A stretch of 64,000 nucleotides of DNA, taken from the IMG/VR virus record IMGVR_UViG_3300031993_000051; one strand, written 5' to 3'. The notes beneath the pieces are model-generated. The model searched no databases. It was given only the letters and a program-made list of their open reading frames with translations, and was not told where the DNA came from. This stretch comes from a virus (Duplodnaviria > Heunggongvirae > Uroviricota > Caudoviricetes). Below, piece after piece: positions 3,166-63,350 of the stretch. The translations under genes and the position numbers were made by a program. Within the stretch, counting starts at the first letter, position 1. Each line of letters begins with the position of its first letter.

Positions 3166-3231
3166 AAACACCTAAAAATCTCCATATTTAGGGTCAAATC
3201 AAAAATACCAGTATTTTATACTGGTATTTTT

Positions 3232-3576
3232 TTATTTTTTATTATTATTTCTATTATCTTTTGTCTTACTTAATCGCCACTTTAGAAAGTCTCTTACTTT
3301 TTGTAAATCTGGATATTTAACGACTTGGTTTTCTGTAATATCATTCCAAATGTCCATATAACCGTTATACCAGCAGATAAACCACCAATAGTTTTGTGTC
3401 CCATACGCACGATATGAAATAATATCTGGACGACATTCATCCATTTTTCTTACAAACAAATAAGATTCTTTACCAAAGTCATATCCGTCTTGGAAGAAAG
3501 AACCTAAGTCATATTGGGCAATATTATCAACCAATTCTTTATTTAAAAAGTTTGTTCTACTAGTTATATTATCCAT
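3232..3576 (-). CDS. hypothetical protein
   Basis: 114-aa ORF that ends in an intrinsic terminator hairpin (3190-3235). Confidence 0.35.
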   Translation of the reverse strand: MDNITSRTNFLNKELVDNIAQYDLGSFFQDGYDFGKESYLFVRKMDECRPDIISYRAYGTQNYWWFICWYNGYMDIWNDITENQVVKYPDLQKVRDFLKWRLSKTKDNRNNNKK

Positions 3577-3584
3577 ATTATTAT

Positions 3585-4442
3585 TTATATCTGATAATTA
3601 TTATATAAATTACGGTATCTTTCCATTATTAAATGTTTTCCTTTAATATGGTCAAATAATCCGTCAGTTCTTTCATGTGCTTGATGCATAATTTCAATAT
3701 CTTTTGAAATTCCAACATTTAAACCAGCATACATAGCATCTATACCCATAGCTACATCTTCATAACCCCAGCCTTTAGCAAATGTTTTACTGTCAAATAA
3801 GGCATTATCTATACCATATTCTTTTTTCATAAATTCTATGTGTTTTAGTAATCCTGTTTTAGTTATACCGAAATTACATGACCAGCCAATCATTCCAGTA
3901 AGCATTAAATCCATTTTTTCATCAAATGTTTTTGCATTATTCCATGCTTTTATTGCACCAGAAGTTATCCTAAGATCGTCATAATTTAATGGTCTTTTTT
4001 GCCAAAGTTCATCCATATTAGCGGTCAATAAATCAGATGCTGGAACTTTTATGTTATCGATTGGTGTATGTCTTCTAGTTCCAAAGACTAAATCATATTT
4101 TTCTAATAATTTTTTATAATTTACAATTACTTTTTTATTTGCTAGCCAAGAATCACCATCTATAAAAATTAATGCATCTGTTTTATTATTAAGAAAATAT
4201 GATATTACAGAATTTCTATTAGTGCATCTTCCAGGATTTTTACTATTATCAATTATATAAACATTTTTATAAAAATTAACTGGCATTTTACCATCTGATA
4301 ATACATATATCATTGTAGGTATTTCAGTTTGATTATATATTGAAAAAATGGCTTTACTTAAAGATTCTTCTTGATTATGATTTGTTATTGCTATTGTTAT
4401 ATCCATGACATATTTATAAAAAGAAAAACCGTCTTTATTCAA
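3585..4442 (-). CDS. family-2-like glycosyltransferase (putative)
   Basis: N-terminal ITIAITNHNQEESLSKAIFSIYNQTE...VLSDG matches the GT2 pattern (IPxYN..L...L.SL..QT...hhDDGS). Confidence 0.5.
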   Translation of the reverse strand: MNKDGFSFYKYVMDITIAITNHNQEESLSKAIFSIYNQTEIPTMIYVLSDGKMPVNFYKNVYIIDNSKNPGRCTNRNSVISYFLNNKTDALIFIDGDSWLANKKVIVNYKKLLEKYDLVFGTRRHTPIDNIKVPASDLLTANMDELWQKRPLNYDDLRITSGAIKAWNNAKTFDEKMDLMLTGMIGWSCNFGITKTGLLKHIEFMKKEYGIDNALFDSKTFAKGWGYEDVAMGIDAMYAGLNVGISKDIEIMHQAHERTDGLFDHIKGKHLIMERYRNLYNNYQI

Positions 4443-4468
4443 GACGGTTTATAATATTCTAATTTAAA

Positions 4469-7400
4469 TTATTGAAATGACCATGTACTTGTTGAAGCAT
4501 CCCAATGTAAATCACCTTGACCCATCGCAGTAGTAAGGAAATCAAATAGCTTACCAAGCATGCTATTAGGATCAGCTTTATATGTTTTTGCAGAAACTGT
4601 ACCATCAGCAGAAACAATCATTGCATTTGATAATTCTACAACATTTGGATTTTCAATATCTGCATAATTTACACTATTACAATTTGGGTCAGATACATCA
4701 TGATTTGCACCACTAAAGAAATAACCGTCATATTCATATGCTTTAAGGCGACCATTACCAATAGCAAATATTATACCACTATTTGGTATTGCTACCATCT
4801 CATCATTAATCCAAGCAGATGTAGTTCTTACACAACCATCTACTTTTTGGTTATACTGACCCATAATAGTTTGATGCTGATTTGCTTTTAAGTATGCGCC
4901 AATAGTTGTGGAATGATGTCCTCTATTAACGTTACCTATACCCATACCAATCTGACAAGAACCGCTTAAACCATTATTATAAGTACCAATTAAAATATTA
5001 TTACTATAATAAAGGTCACTATCACTAAATAATGTATTTCTATCACCAATTAATACATTAGAATTATATTTTTTAGAAACACCATTGAGAACACCAAACA
5101 TATAGTTTCTATCATTATGATCACTAGTATGTCCTAGTATATTTCCATGATCTGTAATACCAAATAATGTACCTGATTTAGTTGCACCAAAATAGTTATC
5201 AGTACCAATAATAGCATTATCAGTAGTAGTACCAGCAGATGTTTTAATATAGTTATTAGCACCATATACGAAGTTACGGTCTAATCTGTTATTAGTTGGT
5301 GGGACAGTAATTTCTAATCTATTACCTACACCATAAACGAAGTTTCTACTTGCATTATTACTGTCTGTAGTTAAGTGCGCAGTTTCTGAGCCTAAATAAC
5401 CAACACTATTCATTTCACCTATAACATAGGTTCCAATTGAATTTTGAAGAGTATTACCAATACCACAGAGTAAGCATTCACAAAGATATTTAGCAATAAA
5501 GTCTCCATAGATAAATGAACGGTTTGTATACATAGCAACAGAATCGCTAAGGTCATTATAAGAATCGGTTTCATGCATATTACCAAAAATATAAGTTTCA
5601 TTGGTATTATATGCAGCTCCTTTAAATATTATATTATTTTTTAAGCATTGAGTAGCGCCATTTAAGCTAGAACAAAAATTATTCGGTTTATCTGTTCTAT
5701 AATATCCTTTGAATAAGAAGTTTTCTGTGGTATATCTGTTATTTGCTGAAAGGACAGAACCGAATAATACATTTTGTGTAAATACTGAATTAACTTGTTT
5801 TTCAGTATCAAATGTAGCAGTAACTTGTGAATTAATTATAATATTATCAGCTAGATATTCAACACCAGAGAAACTTAAAGTATCACAGTTTTCAGAACCT
5901 TGAGAATTTAAGAAGATATTTTCGGTGAAATATCCCTGTGCAAATGTTGGTGCATATGCTTTCAAGTCAGTATTATGAAGAATATTAGCATTAGCTATAC
6001 AAAAATGATCAATTTCAACTTTTCTGGAATTAAACATTATGTTTTTACTAAATGAACCATTAAAATAAGGCCAACCAATATGTTTATGTAATATTATCTC
6101 ACCATCATTACCAAGACTTTCCAGATTATATAGGAAGTTATACTCAATATTACCTTCTTCTGCAGAGAATGTATCAGGAAAATCTACACCATGAGCATAG
6201 TTTCCGTGTATTGTGGTTGCATATATAGATGTTGATCTGATATATTGTAAATCATAAAGTTTGTTATCATCAAATGAATGTGAAAATATATTTACAGAAC
6301 CATTTGCATGATTTATAATATTATTTGTTCCATAAGTTGAAATAAGTTTAAAATTACCAGGACTACCAACATTTTCAAAGTAATTATTATATAATGAACC
6401 ACTTAATTCAAACCTACCGCCACCACCGGCAACATGTTTAACGGTATTACGATTAAACTCACCACCACCTGAAATAGTTACATTAGAGACATCGTAAAAT
6501 TCGTTTCCAATAATTCCTGGCGATCCTTCATTGTAGTTTCTTATATATTTTACTCCACGAGCATGAGTAAAATCATTATCTTGAAATGGCATTTCAACAA
6601 ATTGATTACCATAATAAGTGCTACGAATATTGCCGTAATCTATTTTTACTGTAGCATTAGTAAATTCATTGTGTTCAAAACCATACTTATACCAATCATC
6701 TGGTTTATTAACACCAACAATAGTAGAAAAATATATTTTATTAAGACCTACACCAGCATCAGAATGACCAAGTGAAAAGTCATAGCCAGAAAAAAGTGAT
6801 AAAAATGCAATATTATTATGGCCATCAATACGCGAACGAATATTGAAATTTTGATAACCGATACTTCTAGTGTCAAATTTTACCGTATTACTATAATCTG
6901 GCAAATAATAATTATTTGCATTTAAGTTAGTAACACCTATTACGATATTTTCACCACCAGATGCTAATACTCCTTTACCAATTGCAATATCATAGTTACG
7001 AATAGCAGAGTTTTCAAGACCAAATGCTAATGTAAAACCATCGTTATTCTGGCTAGTACTATCTAATTCCAAATCACTTTGTGTGGTTTCGGAATAGTTT
7101 TTAGAACCGAAAATGAAAGCGTTTCTTGTAGTGTTGGCAGAGTTATCGTTACCAACAATAAAATTCTGCGTATTATAAACTTTTGTATTATTGTCTTTAA
7201 TTAATTTATCAGTGCTTTTAGATTCATTACCATTACCAATAATGATAGAATTACCATGTGCGGAGTTACCAGAACCAATATAGTAATTATTATCGCCTTC
7301 TATATCAGTATCATGATCTTCAGACCAGTTTTTCCAGCTATTGCTGGCACCTTCAAGATCTTGCAATAATTCTATAATTTTATCATCACGATTCTTTAAC

Positions 7401-36900: not shown

Positions 36901-38737
36901 TAAGGACACAGTAACTGTTATTGTAACTGATGACGAATTTTCTGATACCGCACAGGTAATTATCAGAGTTCTCGATGAACCTGAAAAGGTTGAAATTACC
37001 ACATGGGATGATGAAAAGCCTAAAGATACAGTAAAGACAAATGACCCAGATCATAAGTTCGAATGGGAACTTTGTGAAGGTGATAGCTGTATTAAGCATG
37101 AAGAATTTCCGCATATCAAGAAAGATACAACTATCAAGGTATGTAATGATAAGAAGACTGTTTGTGATTCAGTTGTAGTTTTATTCAATGATGCACCTCC
37201 AGTTGTTACTTTGACAAATGCAAAGTCTACTGATGCATTGATTGACTATATTACAATCGAAGAACAGAAGGACGATAAGATTTATGTCAACAAGAAAGAA
37301 AATCCAATTACTGTAACTGTTAGAGATACTGTTCATAAGACAGAAAAGAAATTTGATATTAAAGTTAAGCTTGATACAATTCCTACTAAGGATATTAAGA
37401 TTAAGGAATATAATTACTTGATTGATGAATCTCTTGCAACTCATACAGCAATAGGTAACAATCTTATTGAAGTTTCTGAAGTTATTTCTGTTGACGGTAA
37501 TAAGATAACAATTTCTAAGATTGTTGATAAGAAGACAATGGAACCAATCGATACAGTTCAAACTGTTACTTATCATAAGAAGGTTGGTGGTAAGGACGTA
37601 GTTGTTTCTTATAAGACTGATAATCTTACTGGTCAGAGAGTTTCTGATTATGAAATTTCTTACATGGCTGATTCTTGCACTAAGGTTACATATACTGTAA
37701 ATGATAAGAAGGAAATTGTTAAGAATAAGGAAGGAAATATTGCATATAATATCACTTATGATTATGTAGATGATTTTGGTAACAAAGCATCTGCGTCAGT
37801 TGAAATTATCTTCGACGATATTCCGCCTAAGGTTGAAATTCTTGGACCTGGTCCAATGGAACATTTCAATACAAATGCAATTCCAGTTAAGTGGACAGTT
37901 AATGGCGAAACACAAGATACTTTGACATTACAGAGACTTGAAAAAGGTGTTAACTATATTATCAGAAGATATGTAGATAAGGCTGGTAACGTCGCTGCTG
38001 ATACAGTCACAGTTCTTATGAATGAAGCCAAGGATATTGATATTGAAATTATCAATCCAGTAACCAAGGTTGACCAGGATAAAGTTGATGAATATTATTC
38101 TGAAGGTCATAAGTATAATGATAAGAAACCGTTTGACGTCAAGTTTGTTGACCCGAAGAACGATACAATTCCAGATGTAATTGGTGTTGGTTTCAAGGTT
38201 GATATTGTACTTCCGTCTGTTTCTCCTACTGGTTCTCTTGCAACATTGGATGACATTGTAAAGAATGGTCAGATTCCAGTTGATGATAAGGGAAATATCG
38301 TTGGTGCTTCTACAAAGGGAATTCCAGTAGATAAGTATGTTGAAGAACATTGTACTGAAGAATTCCAGAAGGATTACGATAAGTATGGTTTGAATATTCC
38401 GCTTTATGACGTTACTTATAAACTTCATCTTTGGGTATATACAACTACTGCAAACTATGTAAATGATTTTAATATTGAATTTACATTGAATGATGAAGCT
38501 AAGACTACTACAGCAGGAACTGTCCAGATGGTTATCGACTGGTTGTCTGATAAGGATGGAAACGTCAAGGCTAAGAACCATCATGCTTTAGGAACAGGCG
38601 CATATATAACCAAGTTGTTCAGCACTTCTGTTGCAAAACACCGTTGTGATTATAAGGATCAAGTTAAGGGTGATAGAACTGTAAAGAAGGATGAAACAAT
38701 GAAAACATTTGGTTATAAGCGACCAAACAACAAGTAA
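33929..38737 (+). CDS. giant secreted protein with about six cadherin-like repeats
   Basis: Sec signal peptide MKKIIGILLVLAAFVFSA. Repeat boundaries DVNEAPTID, NSNDGPKFD, DNVNEPVHT, NNVNEPPVL, DINEPVHVQ and LDEPEKVE recur every 265-310 nt. These match the cadherin DxNDxxP linker pattern. Confidence 0.65.
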   Translation: MKKIIGILLVLAAFVFSADYKPFNFETIPQDSASQQDQFDYMLQYKLYGHDFIKMGNDVRIPDKSGWNGTVGNITSNARLTLGGPILANGSISMGDGPNNITGPVRSVDFDLGNVNNSKIASPVCLSGTANANALSAIEDHKTYSFDANICKDSVPAAPTNLYMPIVDWDNLGADVKLDDIVLSGNDATDTIFVPKGEGAYKILIDKIQFGLGGTNASHLYVKMQDGGRLTQIFVKNFIYGNHATIQVVYDTDSGSVVLNQDQYRGNLMFYSNNVISFDNMDYAPIQGSFISTDSIFLGRNVNISGQLLTNKLEIGNDIDGKNFRFVKFDPDTIDVKLDKYGGLRENDSTVIIPIELSDTATIAVYFRYCFDLKDGVTVEDFNIPPTFPICNIDQPKEVSIPIGSKIPSDPIKVNVKVDTLTENEYLVIKIDSISGAILPDGKTEGELKIKIIDAPIGHVEFDTTKTYEFEENKLGEVDVIKILNGTENTRFHLDSAYTDRYELDSLTGKLTLIGEPLDYEKAAIDVIKVTLTDTGNVSVTRNIPITVIDVNEAPTIDDVTANLPENLIHPFMVEKLVAKDPDTKTTFTQNVFSMLEGDTSLFRVDSDGEIWAKKTFDYETDQKTYTLKVLVHDKTNPALKDSAIVTVNITNSNDGPKFDRNDTTFHVNENEPFKDSVKATDQDGDKITYSIIGSVPFKIDSTGVITSTRTFDYEKEKEFTFKVIADDGKAKDTMTVNIIVDNVNEPVHTKDTTFVVDEGKTGEIGKVKGEDEDGKPVKFSCDDSVHYSIDTNTGILRLVDPFDYEITKSDTIKVFVTDSLFTDTAIVIINVNNVNEPPVLQPNDSLTVPENCKNCIVGIITAVDPDSDKVIYEVKEPGFTIDTNGVLKLTDPLDYEKTPEVKITVIAKDSSGAADTATYIIKITDINEPVHVQDTTCSVKENYTGKVCKITATDEDKTTPKYIITDTTNYSIDSTGVITIKNPIDYEKKTKDTVTVIVTDDEFSDTAQVIIRVLDEPEKVEITTWDDEKPKDTVKTNDPDHKFEWELCEGDSCIKHEEFPHIKKDTTIKVCNDKKTVCDSVVVLFNDAPPVVTLTNAKSTDALIDYITIEEQKDDKIYVNKKENPITVTVRDTVHKTEKKFDIKVKLDTIPTKDIKIKEYNYLIDESLATHTAIGNNLIEVSEVISVDGNKITISKIVDKKTMEPIDTVQTVTYHKKVGGKDVVVSYKTDNLTGQRVSDYEISYMADSCTKVTYTVNDKKEIVKNKEGNIAYNITYDYVDDFGNKASASVEIIFDDIPPKVEILGPGPMEHFNTNAIPVKWTVNGETQDTLTLQRLEKGVNYIIRRYVDKAGNVAADTVTVLMNEAKDIDIEIINPVTKVDQDKVDEYYSEGHKYNDKKPFDVKFVDPKNDTIPDVIGVGFKVDIVLPSVSPTGSLATLDDIVKNGQIPVDDKGNIVGASTKGIPVDKYVEEHCTEEFQKDYDKYGLNIPLYDVTYKLHLWVYTTTANYVNDFNIEFTLNDEAKTTTAGTVQMVIDWLSDKDGNVKAKNHHALGTGAYITKLFSTSVAKHRCDYKDQVKGDRTVKKDETMKTFGYKRPNNK

Positions 38738-38795
38738 TAAATAAACCAGGAGTAAATCCTGGTTTTTTATTTTAGGGTTTACAACTAAAAAATAT

Positions 38796-38996
38796 TTGCT
38801 ATATTATAATATTATGCAAAAAACAAAAATTGATATCGTAGTATTTGTAGTTATTTTTATTTTCGTATTTAGTTTAATGATATTTGGATGTAGTTCTGAA
38901 AGTTCTACTTCTCCTGAAGATATGTATCAGAAGTGTATTACTGTTAACGAAGAAAATCCAGATGCATGTGACCAAGAATTTACAATATATAAATGA
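38796..38996 (+). CDS. small lipoprotein (Llp-like candidate superinfection-exclusion factor)
   Basis: 66 aa with a signal peptide and lipobox MIFGC, then a short Cys-containing mature part. Confidence 0.45.
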   Translation: MLYYNIMQKTKIDIVVFVVIFIFVFSLMIFGCSSESSTSPEDMYQKCITVNEENPDACDQEFTIYK

Positions 38997-39475
38997 ATTA
39001 TTTAAAAACATATTTCGCAATTATTGCCAAAGCGGCAGGGAGAGAGCCATCGATATTATATGATAAGCATCATATAATTCCTCAGTCATTGGGTGGTCCA
39101 GACGTGCCTACGAACTGGATTTATTTAACCCCTAGGGAACATATGATTGCACATCATTTGCTTGCCAGAGCTTATCCAGACGTCGAATTATTGCAGTCTG
39201 GATTTAACCTGAAGAAAGTCTGTATTAAGTATTATGACTATTATAGATGGTCTATGAGGTTAAAAGACTTAGCAGGTATGATAGAATATAGTAAGAATAA
39301 AAAAGAGATTGTAACGCGTTTAAGAGTGCTTCTGGACGCAATTGGTGATGTAGACCTAGATAAACATATTCCGGTAAAACAACAGCCTAATATGGTCAAA
39401 TCTAAAGCACCAGCAGTTACTGAAAAAACTGAAAAAATAGAAACTAAAAAAGGAAAAAAGAAATGCAAAGAATAA
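38993..39475 (+). CDS. HNH homing endonuclease
   Basis: HHIIPQSLGGPDVPTNWIYLTPREHMIAHH (the HNH motif). Confidence 0.7.
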   Translation: MNYLKTYFAIIAKAAGREPSILYDKHHIIPQSLGGPDVPTNWIYLTPREHMIAHHLLARAYPDVELLQSGFNLKKVCIKYYDYYRWSMRLKDLAGMIEYSKNKKEIVTRLRVLLDAIGDVDLDKHIPVKQQPNMVKSKAPAVTEKTEKIETKKGKKKCKE

Positions 39476-39666
39476 TTGGAATCTTACTGTTACTATGTGG
39501 CATGTCATTTGCATGTTCACCCTTCTTCACTTCTGAATTTTGTAAGGAGATAGATTTCTGGAATACTCAGTATTCTAGTTATCATTACAAATATTTTGAA
39601 ATTTCTCCTAACTGGCTACTCTGGATTAACGGTTATCAAGCGTTTAATTTCACGATTCGTTTCTAA
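39463..39666 (+). CDS. small secreted/membrane protein
   Basis: 67 aa with an N-terminal hydrophobic signal-like segment. Confidence 0.3.
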   Translation: MQRIIGILLLLCGMSFACSPFFTSEFCKEIDFWNTQYSSYHYKYFEISPNWLLWINGYQAFNFTIRF

Positions 39667-39939
39667 ATAAAAATTTACAAATTAATTTAAACTATGCAAA
39701 ATTTTGCATAGTTTTTTTTATATTTGATATGAAATTTGTAACGTAAAAAATAATAAATAATTATATTTGTCGGTTGAAGTTTATGTTAAATCTTAGTGAA
39801 AAAATTTCTCAAAAATGTAGCTTTAAAATAGTAAAGGCTACATTTTTCATTGTGCTATAAATATAAAACCGATAAAGAAAATGAAAGTTATTAGTGTTGT
39901 GAATTAAATGTTTATTGAGCGTTTATAAAGAGGAAATAG

Positions 39940-42411
39940 ATGATTAAAAACGTAATTAAGCGAGATAATCGCAGACGAAAATTCAACATTGCAAAAGTAT
40001 ATACAGCCATAGAAAATGCATTTAAATCAATAAATGAAAAATATACAGAAGAAGGTATAGACCAATTAGTTGATGAAGTAGTCGAGAAGATTTCCGCAAA
40101 TGATGCCAAGTCAGCAAGAGTTGAAGATATTCAGAATGTTATTGAAAAGACATTGATGAATAGCGGATTCGGAACAGTTGCTAAGGCATTTATTTTATAT
40201 AGAGACGAACGTAACCGTGCACGTGAAACAAAATCAGAAATTGTAAAGACCATTAAGGAAATTACAGAGTCTGATATTAAAAGTTCGAATATTTTAAGAG
40301 ACAATGCAAACGAATCTGGTGCTACTCCTGCTGGAACATACGGTAAGATTGCATCTGAAACGAATAAGATGTATAACCTGTTGAATAACATCAACAGAAA
40401 GTATGCACAGGAACATAAGGACGGACATTTACATATCCATGACCTTAACCAGTATAATTTGACATTCAACTGCTTGTTTGCTCCAGTTGGAAAGTTATTG
40501 AAGAACGGTTTTGACTCTGGAACTGGTTTCTTACGTTCCCCGAAGTCAATCCAGACTGCAGCAGCATTGACAGCAGTTATTCTTCAGCTCCAGTCCAACC
40601 AGCAATATGGTGGTATCGCTGATGATAATCTCGATTTTGATTTAGCACCGTTTGTCGATATTTCATTTAGAAAGAATCTTAAGGAAGAATTAGAAAGATA
40701 TATAGAATATAATCCAGATCATGAAGAAATGACCAATCTTGATGAAGTTGCAACAGCTTCTATGAACTGGCCTTCTGCACTTCTTTATACTAAGTTCCCT
40801 AAGATTTGTGTTATTAAGGCAATTCAGAAGACAGATGATGATACACATCAGGCTATGGAAGGTCTTATTGGTAATTTGAATTCTTTACAGTCTCGTTCTG
40901 GAAACCAAGTTCCATTTAGTTCTTTGAACTTCGGTCTTAATACTTCTAATTGTGGTCGTATGATTAGCAAGAATCTTATTAAGTCTCAGATGGAAGGTCT
41001 CGGTGACGGATTGACAGCAATTTTCCCAATCTTGATTTTCAAGTTGATGGAAGGTTACACAAAGAATCCAGAAGATCCTAACTATGATTTGTATCTCGAC
41101 TCTATTAAGTGTCTTGCTCGTAGATTCTACCCGAACTTTGTAAAGGTCGATAGTTCCTTCAATAAGCCATACATCAAGTATGAAACTAAGGAAGTTGAAA
41201 TTCTTGAAAATGTTATTGGTGTTAAGGTTCGTGGTAAAGATGAAGCAACAATTATCCCAATGCAAGACCAGAAGTTTGATAAGTTTGTCTATCAGTATGA
41301 TGTAGGTCAAGGTGACTATTGGGAAATTGAAGAAATTTCTGGAAATAAGTTGAAGTTGAAGAAACTCATTGAAAATACAACTATTTCTACTATGGGTTGT
41401 AGAACCAGAGTTATTGGTAATATCAATGGTGCTGAACAGACAACTGGTAGAGGTAACTTTGCATTCCATACAATTAACCTTCCTAGACTTGCTATTGAAG
41501 CTCATATCGCAGCAAAGGATGAAGAAGAACGTAAGACTATTTTCTTTGAAAAGCTTGCTGAAATGCTTGAAGATGCAAAGGGAAGTTTGCTTGACAGATT
41601 CGCATTGATTTCTAACAAGACATATGAGAATTTCCCATTTACTATGCAACAGGGTCTTTATCTCACATCTGATGACCAACCGCATGAAGTTACTGATAAG
41701 ATTGGTGAAGTTCTTAAACAGGCTTCGTTGTCAATCGGTTACGTCGGTCTTGCTGAAACCATGTTACTCTTGACAGGTAAGACTTATGGTGTTGACCATG
41801 AAATTGATGATTATGCTTTCTCTATTGTAAAGACTATTCGTGAATTTGTTGATAAGACACAGAAGGAAACTCATTTGAACTGGTCTTGTTTCGCTACTCC
41901 AGCTGAAGCAGTTGCAGGTCGTTTTGCTAACATCGATAAAAATCTTTTCCAGAATGAAAAGAAGCTTGCTGATGTAGATTTACAGAGAGTCTTCGGTAAG
42001 GGTTATTACACAAATAGCCACATGCTTGATTATTCTTTGGAAACTACTCTTGAAAACAAGATTAAGATGGAAGCTCCATATCATAAGATTACAAATGCTG
42101 GTCATATCTTCTATTACAAGTTGAATGGTGACTTGTCTAAGAATCTTGAAGCGGTCAAGGCAACTATTGATGCCATGTATGAAGGTGACCTTGGTTATTT
42201 CACTTGCACATTTGACAGTGATACTTGTACTAAGTGCCATTTCCATGGAATCATCAATAATGAATGTCCATGTTGTGGTAACAAGAATGAAGACGAGATT
42301 ATTCGTGTTAGAAGAATTACCGGATATTTGACTGGTTCTCCTAAGAAGACTATTTTTAAGTCTTGGAATGATGGAAAATTAGCAGAATTGAGAGACCGTC
42401 ATAATATTTAA
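39940..42411 (+). CDS. nrdD: anaerobic ribonucleoside-triphosphate reductase (class III)
   Basis: N-terminal ATP-cone (VIKRDNRRRKFNIAKVYTAIE), C-terminal Zn cysteines (CTKCHFHG...CPCCG) and glycyl-radical motif RRITGYLTG. Confidence 0.9.
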   Translation: MIKNVIKRDNRRRKFNIAKVYTAIENAFKSINEKYTEEGIDQLVDEVVEKISANDAKSARVEDIQNVIEKTLMNSGFGTVAKAFILYRDERNRARETKSEIVKTIKEITESDIKSSNILRDNANESGATPAGTYGKIASETNKMYNLLNNINRKYAQEHKDGHLHIHDLNQYNLTFNCLFAPVGKLLKNGFDSGTGFLRSPKSIQTAAALTAVILQLQSNQQYGGIADDNLDFDLAPFVDISFRKNLKEELERYIEYNPDHEEMTNLDEVATASMNWPSALLYTKFPKICVIKAIQKTDDDTHQAMEGLIGNLNSLQSRSGNQVPFSSLNFGLNTSNCGRMISKNLIKSQMEGLGDGLTAIFPILIFKLMEGYTKNPEDPNYDLYLDSIKCLARRFYPNFVKVDSSFNKPYIKYETKEVEILENVIGVKVRGKDEATIIPMQDQKFDKFVYQYDVGQGDYWEIEEISGNKLKLKKLIENTTISTMGCRTRVIGNINGAEQTTGRGNFAFHTINLPRLAIEAHIAAKDEEERKTIFFEKLAEMLEDAKGSLLDRFALISNKTYENFPFTMQQGLYLTSDDQPHEVTDKIGEVLKQASLSIGYVGLAETMLLLTGKTYGVDHEIDDYAFSIVKTIREFVDKTQKETHLNWSCFATPAEAVAGRFANIDKNLFQNEKKLADVDLQRVFGKGYYTNSHMLDYSLETTLENKIKMEAPYHKITNAGHIFYYKLNGDLSKNLEAVKATIDAMYEGDLGYFTCTFDSDTCTKCHFHGIINNECPCCGNKNEDEIIRVRRITGYLTGSPKKTIFKSWNDGKLAELRDRHNI

Positions 42412-42485
42412 TAAAAACAACTAGAAAAAAATCATACGGGTTGAAAAACCGTATGGTTTTTCTATCTTTAAGCAAAAGGAAGCGA

Positions 42486-42779
42486 ATGTTAGATACTTTA
42501 ATGTTAATCTGTGGTTTTTGTGGAGCTGGTGCTTTTGCAGTTTGTTCATTACCACAAGTTATTAAAGCTTATAAAACTAAGTCGACAGGTGATATAAGTA
42601 TTTTCTTTATTATCTTGTCAATTATCGGTAATTTATGTAGTGCTGCTTATATATTCTATACTAATTATATAAGTGGAATGTGGCAATATCCGCAATATGT
42701 AAATTATACTTTGGCAACTATACTTATATTTATCCTTCTCGGGTTAAAACTAAAATATGATAAGGAAAATAAAAAATGA
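42486..42779 (+). CDS. SemiSWEET / PQ-loop small transporter
   Basis: CSLPQVIKAYKTKSTGDIS, compared with the SemiSWEET pattern SFLPQVLRVVMTKQTRDIS. Three predicted TM helices over about 97 aa. The real start is probably the ATG at 42486 (SD AAGGAAG), not the TTG at 42441 that lies inside the terminator hairpin. Confidence 0.7.
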   Translation: MLDTLMLICGFCGAGAFAVCSLPQVIKAYKTKSTGDISIFFIILSIIGNLCSAAYIFYTNYISGMWQYPQYVNYTLATILIFILLGLKLKYDKENKK

Positions 42780-43435
42780 GTATAATGGATCTTATCGGTG
42801 TTCAAAGAGGAATTGATTTTGAACATAGTTTACCAACTGTAATGCGATATAAACCTGATATAAGAGAAGGTTATGAATATGGCAGTTTTGAACCTAAATA
42901 TGGTCATACGCCAAATTGGCAACCTTTATGTAGTAATTCTTCAGACTTATATAAAGAAATCGTTTTAGCATGTAAGCAAGTTGCAAAAGTTACAGAAATG
43001 AAAAATCCAATAGGTAATGATCCTTTTTGGCATCGTAGTGGACCTGAACGTGCAGGAACGATTGTTTCTAAGATAATACAGCTTTGTAATGATATTGCTA
43101 TTGCTACTCGACAAGGTCAAGGCAATGTTATTGTATTAAATACTAAGATGTATGATTTATTACGTGAGTTAACATTTGGTTTTATGGATTGCCCATTTAT
43201 TTCTGAATCTGCTCCAGGCGTATTAAAGATTGTTGGAAGAGATGCTTTTAAAATGGATTTTGACGATTATTCAAATTATCCAGAAGCTATTATGACATAT
43301 CATTCTAATAATTCGTGTGTATGTGGTGCTATTGCAGCACTTAGTCCTACCGAGACTTATTTTTCAATTAATACTGATATGGAAGGAACAGAGAATTATT
43401 ATAGACTTTTAAGGGTAAAAGATGAATTACAGTAA
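42776..43435 (+). CDS. hypothetical protein, paralog A (flanks nrdG)
   Basis: Related to 43903..44574 (DLIGVQ / DLIKVQ; GNVIVLNTKMYDLLREL / GNYILINNAFKKELEEL; C-terminal YYRLLRV / YYRLIKLV). Confidence 0.4.
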   Translation: MSIMDLIGVQRGIDFEHSLPTVMRYKPDIREGYEYGSFEPKYGHTPNWQPLCSNSSDLYKEIVLACKQVAKVTEMKNPIGNDPFWHRSGPERAGTIVSKIIQLCNDIAIATRQGQGNVIVLNTKMYDLLRELTFGFMDCPFISESAPGVLKIVGRDAFKMDFDDYSNYPEAIMTYHSNNSCVCGAIAALSPTETYFSINTDMEGTENYYRLLRVKDELQ

Positions 43436-43934
43436 AATTGATCCAATGAGTATTGTCGATGGTGACGGTTGTCGAGTAACACTTTTTGTTTCAGGTTGTA
43501 GAAATCATTGTAAAGGGTGTTTTAATCCAGAAACATGGAATTTTGACTATGGTCAACCATATACAGAAATTACAGAAAATGAAATTATTGAAGCCTGTAA
43601 GAAATCATATATTGCTGGGTTAACTGTTCTTGGTGGAGAACCAATGGAAAAAGAAAACCAAGCAGAAATTTATAAACTCATTACTAATTTCAAACGTGCA
43701 TATCCTGGTAAAAATGTTTGGTTATTTACTGGTTATATTTATGAAAAAGATTTATTAGAAGGTCAGCGTCAAAATATAAATGGGTTAACTTCTTCTTTAT
43801 TAGAAATGGTTGATATTCTGGTTGACGGACCATTTATTCTTGAACAGAGAGATTTGAATTTAAAGTTTAGGGGAAGCACGAATCAAAGGCTATTAACAAG
43901 AGATGAAAGACAAAGGTTACAAAATGACAATTAA
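43422..43934 (+). CDS. nrdG: anaerobic RNR activating enzyme (radical SAM)
   Basis: VTLFVSGCRNHCKGCFNPETW (CxxxCxxC) and GGEP. Confidence 0.8.
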   Translation: MNYSKIDPMSIVDGDGCRVTLFVSGCRNHCKGCFNPETWNFDYGQPYTEITENEIIEACKKSYIAGLTVLGGEPMEKENQAEIYKLITNFKRAYPGKNVWLFTGYIYEKDLLEGQRQNINGLTSSLLEMVDILVDGPFILEQRDLNLKFRGSTNQRLLTRDERQRLQNDN

Positions 43935-44574
43935 AGACTTAATTAAAGTCCAGAAGAAAGACGGATTATTTAAAAACTGTGCATCCGTTTTAAGATATAT
44001 TCCAAGAGAACTATTATTCGATGGTAGAGAAGCTGACCGTCCAGAATTAACATTGGGTCTTGAAAGACAACTTATCCATGAAAAAGATTGGAAAGATGCA
44101 AGTGATGAAAGTAAGAAAGAATTAGATGTAATTCATGCATGTATGGATGTTGCTAATGTTATTGAAATTCACAAAGATCCAGAGTCTACTGCTTCTAAAG
44201 AAGAACGTTGTGGTGTATTGTTGACTAATTTAATGAAGGAATGTAATTCTATTAGAACAAGTACTCGCCGTTGTGCAGGTAATTATATTCTTATTAATAA
44301 TGCATTTAAGAAAGAATTAGAAGAACTTGGTGCATTTTCAACTCCATTTATTAATGTTTCAACTGATAACACTGAATATCTTGTTAATGGTGTTATTAAA
44401 ATGAGTGTTGCTGAGTTTGATGAAGATACACCAATGGCATTAATAGGATATTCTGGAACTAGTAGGTTTGATGGTGGAATCGTTTTAGCAGAAGACGAAG
44501 AAAATAATAAGTATGCGATTGCTGACCGATTCTACGATAGTGATAAGTATTATAGATTAATTAAACTTGTATAG
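43903..44574 (+). CDS. hypothetical protein, paralog B (flanks nrdG)
   Basis: See paralog A. Confidence 0.4.
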   Translation: MKDKGYKMTIKDLIKVQKKDGLFKNCASVLRYIPRELLFDGREADRPELTLGLERQLIHEKDWKDASDESKKELDVIHACMDVANVIEIHKDPESTASKEERCGVLLTNLMKECNSIRTSTRRCAGNYILINNAFKKELEELGAFSTPFINVSTDNTEYLVNGVIKMSVAEFDEDTPMALIGYSGTSRFDGGIVLAEDEENNKYAIADRFYDSDKYYRLIKLV

Positions 44575-44577
44575 AAT

Positions 44578-45507
44578 ATGAGATATATTAAAGGGAGAAG
44601 TAATTTAAGTTGCACAATTTTTGTGCCATGGGATTGTAATAATCATTGCAAGTTCTGTACATCTAAGCAGATGTATAAACAAAGAACTTGTGATATTAAT
44701 GCAATTCTTGCACAAATCAAAAAACTTAATGAAAATCCGTTAATTGAAGAATTTGTATTAACAGGTGGAGAACCATTAGCAGATATTGAGAAATGTCAGA
44801 TTCTTATTGATGCTATGGAGAAACCTGTTTATATCAATACTACATTCCCAACATTTACAGATTTGCCTGGAACAGTAGAAATGTCTAAAGTCAAGACGTT
44901 AATCGATTTCATTAATAATAATGAAAAGATTGGTGGTTTGAATATTTCCAGACATATGCATCAACAGTTTTATGAACCAGTTTTGCCAGTAGATATGTTT
45001 GCACATTTAATTAAGAAACATATTAAATTAAATGTAGTTCTTTCTAAGGAGTTTGATATAAACGAATTTAAAACGTTTATAGAACCATATAAAGAATTAG
45101 AAAATATATCTATTTGTATTAGAGCAGATTATCGGAATATTACTAAAGATAACTTAAAGAATCGTGATGATGTATTTGAAAAGTTAATTTTGGAATATGA
45201 ATATGAAAGTTCTGGTGGATGTATGGTCTGTAATGACGACAGATTCTGGAATAATAATTTATTAATTAGTTATCATCGTGGAATGGAACATTCTAAAGTA
45301 GTTTATGGTAATAAGATATTTGTAAATGATATTTTGATTACTATTGACGGTCAAGTTTATGATGACTGGGATTTAGTAACAAATACAGAATTTGAAAGAT
45401 GGGTATTTGGTGAATATTCATTGACAGATGATATATCTGAATATGAAAATGATCCAGTATATGTTGATTGGTTATTGAAAAAGAATGGTGAAGAAGGTAT
45501 ATTATGA
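44578..45507 (+). CDS. second radical-SAM enzyme, glycyl-radical-activase-like
   Basis: CTIFVPWDCNNHCKFCTS (CxxxCxxC directly followed by Cys-x-x, as in PflA/NrdG activases) and LTGGEPL. An extra CMVC pair near the C-terminus. Confidence 0.65.
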   Translation: MRYIKGRSNLSCTIFVPWDCNNHCKFCTSKQMYKQRTCDINAILAQIKKLNENPLIEEFVLTGGEPLADIEKCQILIDAMEKPVYINTTFPTFTDLPGTVEMSKVKTLIDFINNNEKIGGLNISRHMHQQFYEPVLPVDMFAHLIKKHIKLNVVLSKEFDINEFKTFIEPYKELENISICIRADYRNITKDNLKNRDDVFEKLILEYEYESSGGCMVCNDDRFWNNNLLISYHRGMEHSKVVYGNKIFVNDILITIDGQVYDDWDLVTNTEFERWVFGEYSLTDDISEYENDPVYVDWLLKKNGEEGIL

Positions 45508-45704
45508 CATTAACTGAATTAAGACAAAAACTTAAAACCGCAGGTATGAAACAACTTAAAATTACAGGTTGCGGTGGATATGTAGGATGTGGAACTGGTG
45601 GTTATTATGACTATGCCAATGCACATTTTGGAAATCCTCCACAATGGGTATCGTATAGTTGCGGATTTTATATGAGATGTGGTGGTCCTACTACATGTGG
45701 TTAA
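45504..45704 (+). CDS. 66-aa Cys/Gly/Tyr-rich peptide translationally coupled to the radical-SAM gene
   Basis: ATGA overlap with the upstream stop. Degenerate SAP-like N-terminus (MTLTELRQKLKTAGMKQL), then ITGCGGYVGCGTGGYYDY...YSCGFYMRCGGPTTCG (5 Cys, 11 Gly). Confidence 0.4.
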   Translation: MTLTELRQKLKTAGMKQLKITGCGGYVGCGTGGYYDYANAHFGNPPQWVSYSCGFYMRCGGPTTCG

Positions 45705-45710
45705 AAAGAA

Positions 45711-45738
45711 AGAGTCAAGAAAACCTTGACTCTTTTTA
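45711..45738. terminator. bidirectional intrinsic terminator
   Basis: agagtcaag-aaaac-cttgactct followed by TTTTT, between convergent genes. Confidence 0.6.
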
Positions 45739-45744
45739 TATTAT

Positions 45745-46356
45745 TTAAATTGATGGTTTAACATGTGTTATAGGCAGTCTAAGTAATTTATCTGGAAGTA
45801 TATTTAATTTTGAAAGTAATGTATATGCGACTTCACGACTAATACCAGATTCATATAAAGTTTCAATTATTTCAACTGTTCTTATCTCGCTAGTTTTTAT
45901 TTTACGTGCAAGTTTATAAATTTTAGTGAATTTAGAATAGTCATTACTTTCATTTATATTAATTATAATTTTGCCAGTTTTAGGATTTTTATATTCTGCA
46001 CAACCATAATATGAATTATATCCAGTAAATTCATATCTTTTATTTTTGACAATAATAGTTGCTGGTGTTTCATCTTCATCATCGTCATAATAATAACTGC
46101 CACAACCGCTACTATGACAACTAGAAACATATCCGCAACCTACTCTGACACTTCTGGATATTGTACCACATCCACCACCATAACTACTGCTACTACCACA
46201 TCCAGAACTATAGCTGGAACCGCAACCACTGCTGCCGCACCCAGAACTATAACTGCTGCTTCCGCTACAACCACCACTATAACTACCGCATTCATTAAGC
46301 CTACGAACAGTGTAGCCTTTATTTTTAAGTAATTCTCTTGCTTCTAATAAATTCAT
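45745..46356 (-). CDS. SAP-like motif protein with Cys/Gly/Ser/Tyr low-complexity repeat region
   Basis: MNLLEARELLKNKGYTV at the N-terminus. Then about 75 aa of (S)SGCGSS(Y) repeats, an acidic DDDEDE stretch, and a ~100-aa C-terminal domain. Confidence 0.5.
   Translation of the reverse strand: MNLLEARELLKNKGYTVRRLNECGSYSGGCSGSSSYSSGCGSSGCGSSYSSGCGSSSSYGGGCGTISRSVRVGCGYVSSCHSSGCGSYYYDDDEDETPATIIVKNKRYEFTGYNSYYGCAEYKNPKTGKIIININESNDYSKFTKIYKLARKIKTSEIRTVEIIETLYESGISREVAYTLLSKLNILPDKLLRLPITHVKPSI
46140..46325. repeat. imperfect short tandem DNA repeats (ccacaacc / gctactacc / agaactata units) encoding the CGS-rich segment
   Basis: Visible direct repeats on the + strand inside the 45745..46356 CDS. 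Confidence 0.45.
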
Positions 46357-46370
46357 AAATGCCCCTTACA

Positions 46371-46745
46371 TTAGAACAACCAGTCTAATTCTATCATTAC
46401 TCCCCATTTACAATATCTAATAGTTACATCAAAGCCTCGTTCTTTTGCAAGTTTAAAGTATTTTTTAAATATTGTAGGATTATCTTCGTATTCTTTATCA
46501 TGTACTATAATACCTGTACTACCTTCTTCATATTTAGCATGACCATATTTAACATTTGATAATATAGCATCAAGGCCAACAAGTTTTGATTCTTCTGCAG
46601 TAAGTTCATTTTTTATTGCAGTAAATTCATCAAACAGTAATTTTTGTTTGTCAGAATCTAATTTTATTGGGGCTTCTTCAAGTTCTTCTTTAATAATAGC
46701 ATAGCCATTATCTTTAAGTAATTCTGTTGCTTCTTGTAAGTTCAT
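46371..46745 (-). CDS. small SAP-like motif protein
   Basis: N-terminus MNLQEATELLKDNGYAII. Confidence 0.5.
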   Translation of the reverse strand: MNLQEATELLKDNGYAIIKEELEEAPIKLDSDKQKLLFDEFTAIKNELTAEESKLVGLDAILSNVKYGHAKYEEGSTGIIVHDKEYEDNPTIFKKYFKLAKERGFDVTIRYCKWGVMIELDWLF

Positions 46746-46758
46746 TTTAAATCCTTTA

Positions 46759-47193
46759 TTAAAAATTATTTAAAAATGCATGCATTATTGCACCTTTTTG
46801 GTAAATAGCATTACATTCTTCATAAACTGCTTTTTTGCTTTTTAGTTTCTTAAAGTCTTCTTCAGTTAATGGATTAGGATCTTCAGATTTCCAACCTAAT
46901 TCCCATGCTTCCTGTAGGTCTTTTTTAGGGGTATCATAGTCTTTGCAATAACGTTTTAAAACAATTTCACCAATATCTTTACCGGTATCGTTCAATTCTT
47001 TTTCAGAGAGAATGGTATTTTGATAGCCTATTTGGACGGTATTCTGTGCCCAAGAAGAATTTATAAGTTTAGAACGATATGCTAGATAATCATCGGCACT
47101 ATTAAAACGTATTTCAGATTCATTCATTACAGGTTTATCTATAACCTTGTAATGATTTTCTTTTAATATAGATATAGCTTCTTTTAAGTTCAT
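46759..47193 (-). CDS. small SAP-like motif protein
   Basis: N-terminus MNLKEAISILKENHYKVI. Confidence 0.5.
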   Translation of the reverse strand: MNLKEAISILKENHYKVIDKPVMNESEIRFNSADDYLAYRSKLINSSWAQNTVQIGYQNTILSEKELNDTGKDIGEIVLKRYCKDYDTPKKDLQEAWELGWKSEDPNPLTEEDFKKLKSKKAVYEECNAIYQKGAIMHAFLNNF

Positions 47194-57026: not shown

Positions 57027-57482
57027 TTACGATGTCGCCATCATGAGTTTCTTGTAATCAAGGTAATTCTTGATAGCGAAAGATAAATTCTTTATGTTAT
57101 TCAGTGTGTTTTCGATGAATTCCAAAAAGTATTTCTGTTGGTTGACCTGTTTTAGTTTTGCTACATAAGGAGTACAACAATTAATCTGAGAATCAATTTC
57201 TTTTGCTGTTTCCCAAAATTCATTGATTGAGATATTGTATTTCTTTTGTAATTCCACTGTATTTCTAGGTCTTTTGAAACACTTTGTCAAATCACCGTAT
57301 AATTCCAACAATTCTACATTTAAGCTTGCACAGACATATTTTTGGTCTTGATACAATTTAATCCATTCTTGAATAACAGCTGGCAAAATATTATTCTTTT
57401 TAATAATTGCCTCCAAAGTATCAGGCATAGATAAATCTGTTTTTGCTTTTTCCTCAACTTGTTTAAACGTCTCTAAATTCAT
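57027..57482 (-). CDS. hypothetical protein
   Basis: 151-aa ORF whose stop overlaps the NUDIX start. Confidence 0.4.
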   Translation of the reverse strand: MNLETFKQVEEKAKTDLSMPDTLEAIIKKNNILPAVIQEWIKLYQDQKYVCASLNVELLELYGDLTKCFKRPRNTVELQKKYNISINEFWETAKEIDSQINCCTPYVAKLKQVNQQKYFLEFIENTLNNIKNLSFAIKNYLDYKKLMMATS

Positions 57483-57925
57483 ACCTTATTTATGTCACGC
57501 TCTTTGTAGCGTTTAATGCAATCGGCTACGAGCGGTCCCAAACTTCTGTAATATGTTTGGGTAGCGGTGTCATCAATCAGTTTGTAATCATCTACTTCCA
57601 AAGGAGTTCTTCCTTCGAAATTGAAAGTAGTAGAACAGCTTAAGTCTTTAAGATTGATGTCAGTTTCTGCGACATAAAGATGTAAATCTTTATACTTGGT
57701 ATATAAGAACATACCACAGTCATAAAGATCAGATTCGGTAAGTATAATATTAGCTTCTTCTTTTAATTCACGTAAAGCTGTTTCTACATGAGTCTCGTTA
57801 CCTTCTACATGTCCCTTGGGAATATCCCAATTACCGTCTCTATATGAGTGACAAGACGGATGACATGCCAAAAGCTTACGAGATGCTTTATCAATAATAA
57901 TTACACCACAACTAATAGCCTTCAT
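57479..57925 (-). CDS. NUDIX hydrolase
   Basis: GHVEGNETHVETALRELKEEANI matches the Nudix box Gx5Ex7REUxEExGU. Confidence 0.75.
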   Translation of the reverse strand: MKAISCGVIIIDKASRKLLACHPSCHSYRDGNWDIPKGHVEGNETHVETALRELKEEANIILTESDLYDCGMFLYTKYKDLHLYVAETDINLKDLSCSTTFNFEGRTPLEVDDYKLIDDTATQTYYRSLGPLVADCIKRYKERDINKV

Positions 57926-62603: not shown

Positions 62604-63350
62604 TTAAATGCCAAAATTTTCTAAGAAATAATCAGGAAGCTTTGGATTGAAATGTTGAATACGTATCGTTTCCAGTTTAAATTTTCCTGCATTATACGCA
62701 CGAATAATCTTATCGTAATTTGGACCTTGAATACCTTTTCTAATAAGTTCATTAACTTCATGATATGTAAAGCCTAACTTTTCTTCGTCAGAAAGTGGTT
62801 GAAGCCCATCAATCGGTGTTTTATGCGTAAGTTCATATGGAAGTCCAAGGTCATCACCAATTTCGATAACTTCTTCCGTGGTTAGCATATCAATCGGTGC
62901 AAAGGAACCACAAGTATCTCCCCAAAGCGTAGCATAGGAAACTATATTTTCGCTGCGATTGCATGTGTTAGCCATTAACCAACCATTAGTTTGTGCTGTT
63001 ACCATAATCTGATTAGTACGAAGCCTTGCACCAACATTTGTCTTAGCATCATAAGACTTGTCTGCACCAGGAACAAGCGCCAAAGATTCCTTGACAAGTG
63101 TTTCAATATCTTGAACATCATAACTAATGCCAAGATGATCAACTAATTGATAAGAACAAGAAATGTCTTTTTGAATACCACATGGAAGCAATATGCCATG
63201 TACATGCTCTTTACCTAATGCTGCTGCACAAATTGCTGCTACTACACTAGAATCTTTGCCACCAGAAATACCAAGAACCGCGTCGGTTTTACCTACACGA
63301 TTAAAAAAATCTGCTGTCCAATCTATCACGTTTTTAGTTAATGTCTTCAT
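62604..63350 (-). CDS. nadE: NH3-dependent NAD+ synthetase
   Basis: PP-loop VLGISGGKDSS. Aligns along its length with E. coli NadE (ARLRTNQIMVTAQ, WGDTCGSFAPID, PLSDEEKLGFTYHEVNELIRKG, HFNPKLP). Confidence 0.85.
   Translation of the reverse strand: MKTLTKNVIDWTADFFNRVGKTDAVLGISGGKDSSVVAAICAAALGKEHVHGILLPCGIQKDISCSYQLVDHLGISYDVQDIETLVKESLALVPGADKSYDAKTNVGARLRTNQIMVTAQTNGWLMANTCNRSENIVSYATLWGDTCGSFAPIDMLTTEEVIEIGDDLGLPYELTHKTPIDGLQPLSDEEKLGFTYHEVNELIRKGIQGPNYDKIIRAYNAGKFKLETIRIQHFNPKLPDYFLENFGI

Follow-up and report, generated by a model that had tools for sequence, protein, structure and literature searches.

A phage-encoded SemiSWEET-fold protein with a non-canonical pocket, linked to nrdG and possibly carrying a non-sugar metabolite

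Why would a phage keep a three-helix membrane protein of 97 amino acids (AA) among the genes of its anaerobic ribonucleotide reductase (RNR)? This question is raised by positions 42486..42779 (+) of the IMG/VR virus record IMGVR_UViG_3300031993_000051 (Caudoviricetes), of which a stretch of 64,000 nucleotides, hereafter the window, was analysed. The original prediction for the gene at this position, here called the PQ gene, was a phage-encoded SemiSWEET sugar uniporter inserted between nrdD and nrdG and rare in phages, with a holin-like membrane effector as another option. The reading favoured here, with about even confidence, is a homodimeric facilitator of a small metabolite other than a sugar, for which a pyrimidine (deoxy)nucleoside is a possible cargo. 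Judging from the alignments and the structure model, the putative product should be given the narrower label of a SemiSWEET-fold, single PQ-loop carrier with a non-canonical pocket.

The open reading frame (ORF) is a genuine gene under strong purifying selection. It runs from ATG 42486 to the TGA at 42777-42779 and is preceded by a Shine-Dalgarno-like AAGGAAG (42476..42482, +) that ends three bases before the ATG; an AAGGAA-like motif is found at the same spot in relatives. Longer in-frame starts at TTG 42441 and ATG 42453 were considered and rejected. Since both fall within a conserved hairpin and, in relatives, are out of frame or interrupted by stops, ATG 42486 was taken as the true start. 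A candidate second start at M6 is not conserved among the relatives. Pairwise comparison with 16 distinct coding sequences from relatives gave ratios of nonsynonymous to synonymous substitution rates (dN/dS) of 0.03-0.11 wherever dS could be estimated, with synonymous sites being saturated in the deeper comparisons. Identical proteins are encoded by differing DNA at several loci. The original prediction had made its case dependent on conservation of the ORF, and the ORF is kept in every relative found.

The fold of the encoded protein is that of a SemiSWEET. The LPQV motif (L22-P23-Q24-V25) and the three transmembrane (TM) helices noticed earlier were confirmed: residues 7-61 match the Pfam family PQ-loop (PF04193) with an E-value of 2.1e-13 and 50.2 bits against a curated gathering threshold of 22, and an AlphaFold2 monomer model, for which a 44-sequence alignment served as input, has a mean predicted local distance difference test (pLDDT) score of 91.9. 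The modelled helices span residues 2-18 and 22-31 (TM1, kinked at P23-Q24), 39-63 (TM2) and 68-96 (TM3). In a Foldseek search against the PDB, the best 8 matches were all SemiSWEET chains (4RNG, 5UHS, 4QNC, 4X5M/N), with target-normalised TM-scores of 0.71-0.84, probabilities of 0.99-1.0 and a root-mean-square deviation of 1.9-3.1 A. The KDEL receptor and cystinosin followed, and SWEET13 and the mitochondrial pyruvate carrier were far weaker (E about 9). Model and structure search thus give the triple-helix PQ-loop bundle by which the prediction was to be judged, with a PQ-kinked TM1 and in the SemiSWEET size class of about 90 AA. The best PDB sequence matches are SemiSWEETs as well (4RNG, 9e-6; 9KAX, 9e-4), and the family profile matches LbSemiSWEET (4QNC) with an E-value of 8e-13.

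Bacterial SemiSWEETs (LbSemiSWEET 4QNC/5UHS, TySemiSWEET 4RNG, EcSemiSWEET 4X5M/N; TCDB 2.A.123; Pfam clan MtN3-like) are the closest known system. They share with the phage protein a length of about 90-100 AA, the triple-helix bundle, the PQ hinge in TM1 and the Gly/Asp/Ser/Tyr/Pro gate positions. In contrast, the phage family has a longer TM2-TM3 loop with a conserved W-Q-x-P, and its inspected genomic contexts are all phage-like, with none adjoining a carbohydrate operon. The score for MtN3_slv (PF03083) stays below the gathering threshold (16.9 versus 23.7 bits, E 0.0066), and this is the family that was required for membership in the SemiSWEET set of Jia et al. 2018 (PMC5972207). The charge distribution, with a basic loop at residues 27-32 and a basic C-terminal tail (the charged C-terminus reads KLKYDKENKK), suggests an N-out/C-in topology. 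Among the PHROGs, the only match is phrog_25992, whose function is unknown.

The residues that define the transport mechanism and the sugar site of SemiSWEETs are informative about the possible cargo. Residues were mapped by aligning the family profile to LbSemiSWEET (4QNC), and an independent MAFFT alignment agrees with this mapping. The roles of the gate, hinge and pocket residues of LbSemiSWEET were taken from the literature, where G6, P19-Q20, D32, S34, Y51 and P59 are conserved gate or hinge positions in SemiSWEETs (PMC5972207). Their counterparts in the window protein are G10 (for G6) and P69 (for P59) near the extrafacial gate, the hinge P23-Q24 (for P19-Q20), D36 and S38 (for D32 and S34) in the inner gate cluster, and the gate residue Y55 (for Y51). 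G48 corresponds to G44, a glycine conserved in the aligned SemiSWEETs and in the phage family. In the sugar pocket, the window protein has F17 in place of T13, S52 in place of W48 and Y74 in place of N64. According to both alignments, all hinge and gate positions are retained and all three sugar-pocket residues are replaced.

The same pattern extends over the whole phage family, in which G10, G13, P23, Q24, G48, Y55 and P69 are near-invariant, while D36 and S38 are present in most members. In SemiSWEETs, no residue of TM2 is described as more conserved than the tryptophan that stacks on the sugar (PMC5972207). In the phage family, the equivalent column contains Ser, Thr, Cys, Ala or Met and never Trp, and TM2 of the window protein contains no Trp under either alignment. 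A first phmmer alignment to 4RNG had paired the sugar-binding Trp with Y55 by means of a gap in TM2; this pairing was overruled by the family-profile and MAFFT alignments (W48-S52, Y51-Y55). The family has a signature of its own, N73 being present in all 41 representative clusters and Y74 in 40 of them. N73 lies one position ahead of the canonical pocket asparagine (N64 in LbSemiSWEET) and might partly stand in for it. Such an invariant pair of a polar and an aromatic residue within a TM helix suggests a specific ligand site. Conserved gates are the pattern expected if alternating access is still under selection. In our reading, the alternating-access machinery was probably kept, and the ligand site rebuilt and then frozen, a pattern more in keeping with a carrier of another cargo than with a membrane protein that is degenerate or purely structural. 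The rebuilt sugar pocket makes glucose or sucrose an improbable cargo. The earlier assignment as a SemiSWEET thus held for fold, PQ hinge and gates, and failed to extend to the sugar pocket and to MtN3_slv membership.

The gene neighbourhood is the second line of evidence. The window is phage DNA, as predicted: it encodes a terminase fragment, a UvsX-like recombinase, a gp32-like single-stranded DNA-binding protein, a DnaB-like helicase, a primase, a tail sheath protein, an RNA ligase and several homing endonucleases, with a guanine-cytosine (GC) content of about 30-36%. The gene for the catalytic subunit of the anaerobic (class III) RNR, nrdD, precedes the PQ gene at 39940..42411 (+; Pfam NRDD 9.2e-150, ATP-cone 1.4e-20, Gly_radical 1.3e-6; PHROG 487, 2.9e-172), and nrdG, encoding the radical S-adenosylmethionine (radical-SAM) activase of NrdD, follows at 43422..43934 (+; Pfam Fer4_12 9.4e-49; PHROG 626, 6.6e-52). 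The described position between nrdD and nrdG is correct in that these genes belong to a packed, same-strand block with overlapping stop and start codons. It is incomplete in that an ORF of 219 AA (orf219, 42776..43435, +) also lies between the PQ gene and nrdG; its ATG overlaps the TGA of the PQ gene (ATGA).

Relatives were collected by a locus search with a 7-sequence alignment. The close ones are located on contigs of 200-425 kb (IMG/VR and metagenome data; ruminant and gut samples) and therefore belong to a jumbo-phage lineage. Clade A, to which the window belongs, comprises 30 non-redundant loci; nrdG is at most two ORFs away from the PQ gene in 27 of them, and nrdD at most three ORFs away in 24. 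The simplest order, nrdD-PQ-nrdG, was found in L002, where the PQ stop and the nrdG start overlap by 4 nt, and likewise in L020 and L022-L028; all of these lack orf219. A second order, nrdD-nrdG-PQ, is present in L007, L008 and L021, with the end of nrdG overlapping the PQ start by 8 nt. In some phages with this second order, the identity to the window proteins is about 24% for NrdD and 57-61% for NrdG, compared to 84-85% for the PQ protein. The description of the PQ gene as inserted is not supported by these arrangements: as far as gene order tells, the variable insert is orf219, and the PQ gene itself belongs to the simplest arrangement. Two gene orders and divergent NrdD and NrdG proteins next to a conserved PQ protein argue that the PQ gene has kept its coupling to nrdG despite at least one rearrangement and one replacement of nrdD; it is also better conserved than its partners.

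The neighbours of the PQ gene were clustered over 61 non-redundant loci. Among the commonest ones outside the nrd-linked clade, a ThyX-like gene, usually directly upstream of the PQ gene, was found in 14 loci across 9 groups of PQ genes, a dUTPase gene in 11 loci and a gene for a patatin-like phospholipase in 10. An M15-like peptidase gene, usually directly downstream, was present in 12 loci across 8 PQ groups. In L056, the PQ gene lies between PolB and a dCMP deaminase, and in L029 it lies three genes after a 5'-3' deoxyribonucleotidase. Two themes recur among these neighbours, namely pyrimidine-deoxynucleotide metabolism, which fits the nrdDG linkage, and a possible lysis module. The M15-like peptidase was identified via PHROG 894 ('endolysin', 5e-11) and the ThyX-like protein via consistent matches to Pfam Thy1 (in 9 of 9 members tested, with no other Pfam match; best E 1e-6); a sequence search of the PDB gave no significant match for either. 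The 64-kb window contains no homolog of the M15-like peptidase, the patatin, the ThyX-like protein or the dUTPase.

The favoured mechanism can be outlined as follows. As in bacterial SemiSWEETs, two copies of the protein would associate in the cytoplasmic membrane of the host and swing about the PQ hinge, and a small uncharged metabolite would pass down its gradient through the dimer. In the window's lineage, the PQ gene would be transcribed and translationally coupled with nrdG, and the cargo would be a nucleoside-like precursor or by-product of the phage's deoxynucleoside triphosphate (dNTP) synthesis, e.g. a pyrimidine (deoxy)nucleoside or base. Dimerisation, transport activity, its direction and the cargo are what we infer here. 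A nucleoside-like cargo was guessed because of the coupling to nrdG and the pyrimidine-deoxynucleotide and replication neighbours elsewhere; a pyrimidine (deoxy)nucleoside or base is the best guess, though perhaps one less likely than not. A broader version is doubtful, in which large phages would hold their own family of SemiSWEET-fold half-transporters, with a pocket retooled around the N-Y pair that moves a nucleoside-like metabolite, kept together with dNTP-synthesis genes as a private import or export route for DNA precursors.

Several points weigh against this explanation. The cargo assignment is a guess from the gene neighbourhood, and early phage regions are dense in nucleotide and replication genes, so that adjacency may reflect nothing more than the timing of expression. 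The approximately 30 nrd-linked loci are close relatives and count as no more than one or two independent events. Co-transcription with nrdD may be only partial, given the conserved terminator-like hairpin that separates nrdD from the PQ gene. A nucleoside kinase able to trap an imported nucleoside was not seen in the window among the 25 PHROG families listed of 36 matched, or in Pfam scans of 20 further ORFs. Finally, one sister clade has the PQ gene ahead of the M15-like peptidase and the patatin-like phospholipase, with an extra C-terminal helix in the PQ protein, an arrangement that resembles a lysis cassette.

This resemblance is the main support for a holin or lysis-timing membrane protein, a three-helix protein that would accumulate, permeabilise the membrane at a set time and free the endolysin, with the transporter fold being co-opted. 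Its size, three TM helices, inferred N-out/C-in topology and short charged C-terminus resemble those of class I holins such as lambda S105. In the sister clade (clade B, with the order dUTPase - ThyX-like - PQ), the PQ gene lies 3-80 nt upstream of the conserved 177-AA peptidase, which is followed by the patatin-like phospholipase (Pfam 2e-18); this covers the 12 loci and 8 PQ groups mentioned above, and the clade B PQ proteins bear a basic linker and a fourth hydrophobic helix. In L058/L155, the PQ, peptidase and patatin genes also occur together, in another order. Nevertheless, the peptidase usually occurs without the PQ gene. The M15-like gene is present in 17 other related jumbo-phage loci without a PQ gene within 4 kb, and in the nine of these that were inspected, no ORF adjoining the peptidase has a TM segment. 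One of the 17 is on the 424-kb contig of a clade-mate (L021 and L158), at a distance of about 50 kb from the PQ gene, the window has neither the peptidase nor the patatin, and in small phages the family's genes are found in replication modules and not by a lysis gene. Holins are poorly conserved, and the exact hinge and gate residues of SemiSWEETs together with an N-Y pair that is invariant over deep divergence are atypical of them. No named holin family was matched in Pfam or the PHROGs, with Pfam giving only PQ-loop-related matches for the window protein, and the conserved dual start is missing, as M6 is not preserved. For the window gene, which lies in an RNR block rather than a lysis cassette and is deeply conserved with transporter motifs, the case for a holin is weak and this function is unlikely.

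Two other explanations were considered. A canonical SemiSWEET sugar uniporter, i.e. a glucose- or sucrose-type facilitator raising the carbon and energy supply during infection, would agree with the nearest solved structures and the best PDB sequence matches, which are sugar-transporting SemiSWEETs, and L058 has a UDP-galactopyranose mutase and a family 2 glycosyltransferase nearby. In addition, SemiSWEETs are a diverse group, most of which have no established physiological substrate (PMC5972207). However, the sugar-stacking Trp of TM2 is absent, the pocket Asn and Thr have become Tyr and Phe, the MtN3_slv score is under its cut-off, and no carbohydrate-metabolism gene adjoins the PQ gene in any nrd-linked or ThyX-linked locus, which makes sugar transport very unlikely. 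Small early phage membrane proteins often have exclusion roles, e.g. T4 Imm. By analogy, the PQ protein could block or heterodimerise with a host PQ-loop protein or another membrane protein, resulting in superinfection exclusion or shut-off of a host transporter, or it could tether phage proteins to the membrane. The early-gene-like position fits this, as do distant members by rIIA/rIIB (L013) and by a gene for the anti-Pycsar protein Apyc1 (L130). Gene context is the one positive argument for it, though, and a blocker or anchor would not need conserved hinge and gate residues. Moreover, no close host paralog is evident, given that the 4 matches in 185,579 species-representative genomes are all contigs of metagenome-assembled genomes (MAGs). 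Such a non-transport role is likewise very unlikely.

The facilitator of a nucleoside-like metabolite has a functional parallel in Pnu-type proteins. These are facilitators of a distant SWEET-like fold for ribosylated or ring-shaped small metabolites (PnuC for nicotinamide riboside, PnuT for thiamine, PnuX for riboflavin, PnuN predicted for deoxynucleosides) that work by facilitated diffusion with metabolic trapping (PMC5749112); the prediction of PnuN as a deoxynucleoside carrier is ascribed to Rodionov and Gelfand (2005) in PMC7749635. In contrast to the three helices of the phage protein, Pnu proteins have a seven-helix core, some with an additional N-terminal helix, and form single-chain units. 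PnuC was absent among the PDB matches of the family profile at E<=1, and the likeness is one of functional analogy only, not of family membership. PnuN was reportedly also linked to the RNR regulon by the same authors.

If the PQ protein is a working carrier, it would add a membrane-transport step to the nucleotide-metabolism functions of phages. With its intact gates and changed pocket, it would also be a natural scaffold of the SemiSWEET type on which to study how a minimal fold chooses its cargo. If the nucleoside-like cargo is also true, viruses would have their first SemiSWEET-type carrier for something other than a sugar, a minimal equivalent, with three helices, of the Pnu-type facilitators of nucleosides and vitamins. 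As a holin, it would instead show a transporter fold put to use in lysis.

How widespread the family is depends on the databases considered. A HMMER search over 1.84 billion cluster representatives, each standing for a cluster at 50% identity, gave 263 matches at E<=1e-3 and 41 at E<=1e-10. All contexts inspected are phage-like: T4-like early regions by rIIA/rIIB or near RNA ligases, and, in small phages, replication modules with Prim-Pol, PolA, a UvrD-type helicase or RusA. The claim of rarity in phages therefore stands for deposited genomes, where neither a megablast search with the operon nor a tblastn search with the window protein matched any of 50,697 phage records, and not for metagenomes with their 41 clusters. 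Two distant family members each match only LR756502.1, an unannotated 642-kb uncultured phage. The family seems to be confined to phages and is unstudied; a function found for this gene would extend to dozens of gene clusters.

Viral single-PQ-loop proteins as such are already on record. About a dozen viral proteins of the same fold are labelled 'PQ loop repeat' or 'SemiSWEET' in BFVD. The same predicted fold is found in A0A8S5P1N9 ('SemiSWEET, PQLC', Myoviridae sp. ctrf010), A0A6J7WPM7 (uncultured Caudovirales phage) and the giant-virus proteins A0A5B8IE11 and A0A1V0SEQ0. These uncharacterised UniProt/BFVD proteins of about 80-106 AA reach query-normalised TM-scores of 0.72-0.79 with a probability of 1.0, and are only 16-29% identical to the window protein. 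No published study of them was found, and the literature gave nothing relevant on phage SemiSWEETs or on PQ-loop proteins tied to RNR or to holins and lysis.

Some single loci deserve mention. Two contigs of 191 kb and 173 kb (L125 and L126; GTDB JAFQXD010000042.1 and JAFRFB010000097.1) come from goat-gut MAGs labelled Methanobrevibacter and carry a PQ gene 98% identical to that of the window; most likely, these are phage contigs that were mis-binned due to their low GC content. Frequent AAGGAA ribosome-binding sites and two matches in Clostridia MAGs hint at a Firmicutes host. On a 2.6-kb ENA contig (P0013), the PQ-loop protein is fused in frame to a chorismate mutase type II domain (170 AA), a single case that could be an assembly or frameshift artefact.

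The recurrent neighbours have features of their own. The ThyX-like gene (e.g. L048 7351-7992, L080 5453-6016, L012 884-1402) is the most widely conserved PQ neighbour outside the nrd-linked clade. Its product, which has a cluster of Cys residues at the C-terminus and an RH(K/H)...QSQR motif one residue longer than the usual ThyX signature, might modify pyrimidines rather than act as a plain thymidylate synthase. The M15-like peptidase (SxH...AAD...WIH) and the patatin-like phospholipase travel together in several jumbo-phage lineages (L048 8463-9035 and 9156-10034; L058 6201-6776 and 7147-7650) and may constitute a lysis pair that lacks an obvious holin or spanin.

In the window, the block that contains the PQ gene is bounded by two bidirectional terminator-like hairpins found by a terminator scan, one upstream of nrdD at the block start (39689..39714, 11 pairs) and one closing the block (45707..45737, 13 pairs, followed by a T run). 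All genes of the block lie on the same strand, and their frames overlap or are 3 nt apart, except for a 74-nt spacer after nrdD. This spacer contains the hairpin between nrdD and the PQ gene (42427..42469, +), a stem-loop AAAAATCATACGG / CCGTATGGTTTTT at 42427-42461, followed by the T-rich tract TTTTTCTATCTTT; the terminator scan marked this site as terminator-like, too. Among 8 relatives, it has 16 predicted pairs, 4 of which are maintained by changes on both sides, and it remains directly upstream of the PQ gene in L016 despite 2.1 kb inserted after nrdD. It looks like an intrinsic terminator or attenuator, and an attenuating hairpin would yield less PQ protein and NrdG than NrdD. A riboswitch that might have pointed to the cargo was not found: an Rfam scan of positions 38700-46500 (E<=1) was empty, and the upstream element is a plain hairpin.

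The remaining genes of the block are of mixed character. The end of orf219, which has a weak Pfam Gp23 match, overlaps the nrdG start by 14 nt, and orf223 (43903..44574, +) overlaps the nrdG end. The latter encodes a small HK97-fold protein, major-capsid or encapsulin-like: it matches Pfam Gp23 (3.2e-6, 27.3 bits versus a cut-off of 24.4), and its AlphaFold2 model, at a pLDDT of 60, gave HK97-fold capsid proteins or encapsulins as all of its top Foldseek PDB matches, the best being the T4 head (7VRT, E 1.3e-4). Both proteins are paralogs (26-28% identity), and orf219, as the small paralog of orf223, is presumably HK97-like as well. They flank nrdG, overlapping its ends, with a copy number of 0, 1 or 2 among close relatives. 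Capsid-fold proteins in an anaerobic RNR block could represent an encapsulin-like shell, a decoy for capsid-sensing defence or a selfish insert. The block continues with a second radical-SAM protein of 309 AA with a CxxxCxxC motif (44578..45507, +; Pfam Radical_SAM 1.7e-8, Fer4_12 7e-7) and ends with orf66 (45504..45704, +), which encodes a Cys/Gly-rich protein of 66 AA and is conserved in L015 and L016. On the opposite strand, at 45745-47193 (-), three ORFs share the N-terminal pattern 'MNL.EA..LLK..GY', and the first has a long Cys/Gly/Ser-rich tract. Together with 44578-45704, they may form a radical-SAM-modified peptide system.

The nrdD-nrdG region is a hot spot of variable inserts. An HNH homing endonuclease is encoded upstream of nrdD in the window (38993-39475), the nrdD-nrdG interval of L007 (4487-5512) contains an ORF of 341 AA with DUF7487, and the 2.1-kb insert of L016 lies in the interval 2419-4548. 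Elsewhere, the window encodes an NAD synthase (62604-63347, -; Pfam 1.7e-40) and a Nudix hydrolase (57479-57922, -), a hint of genes for the metabolism of nicotinamide adenine dinucleotide (NAD). Import of an NAD precursor was considered as the role of the PQ protein and rejected, since these two genes lie 15-20 kb away and are unlinked to the PQ gene. Formate, SAM or flavin as an import for NrdD and NrdG was another candidate role, for which no evidence was found. Further genes of the window encode an SPFH/Band 7 protein (2389-3162) and a family 2 glycosyltransferase (628-1488).

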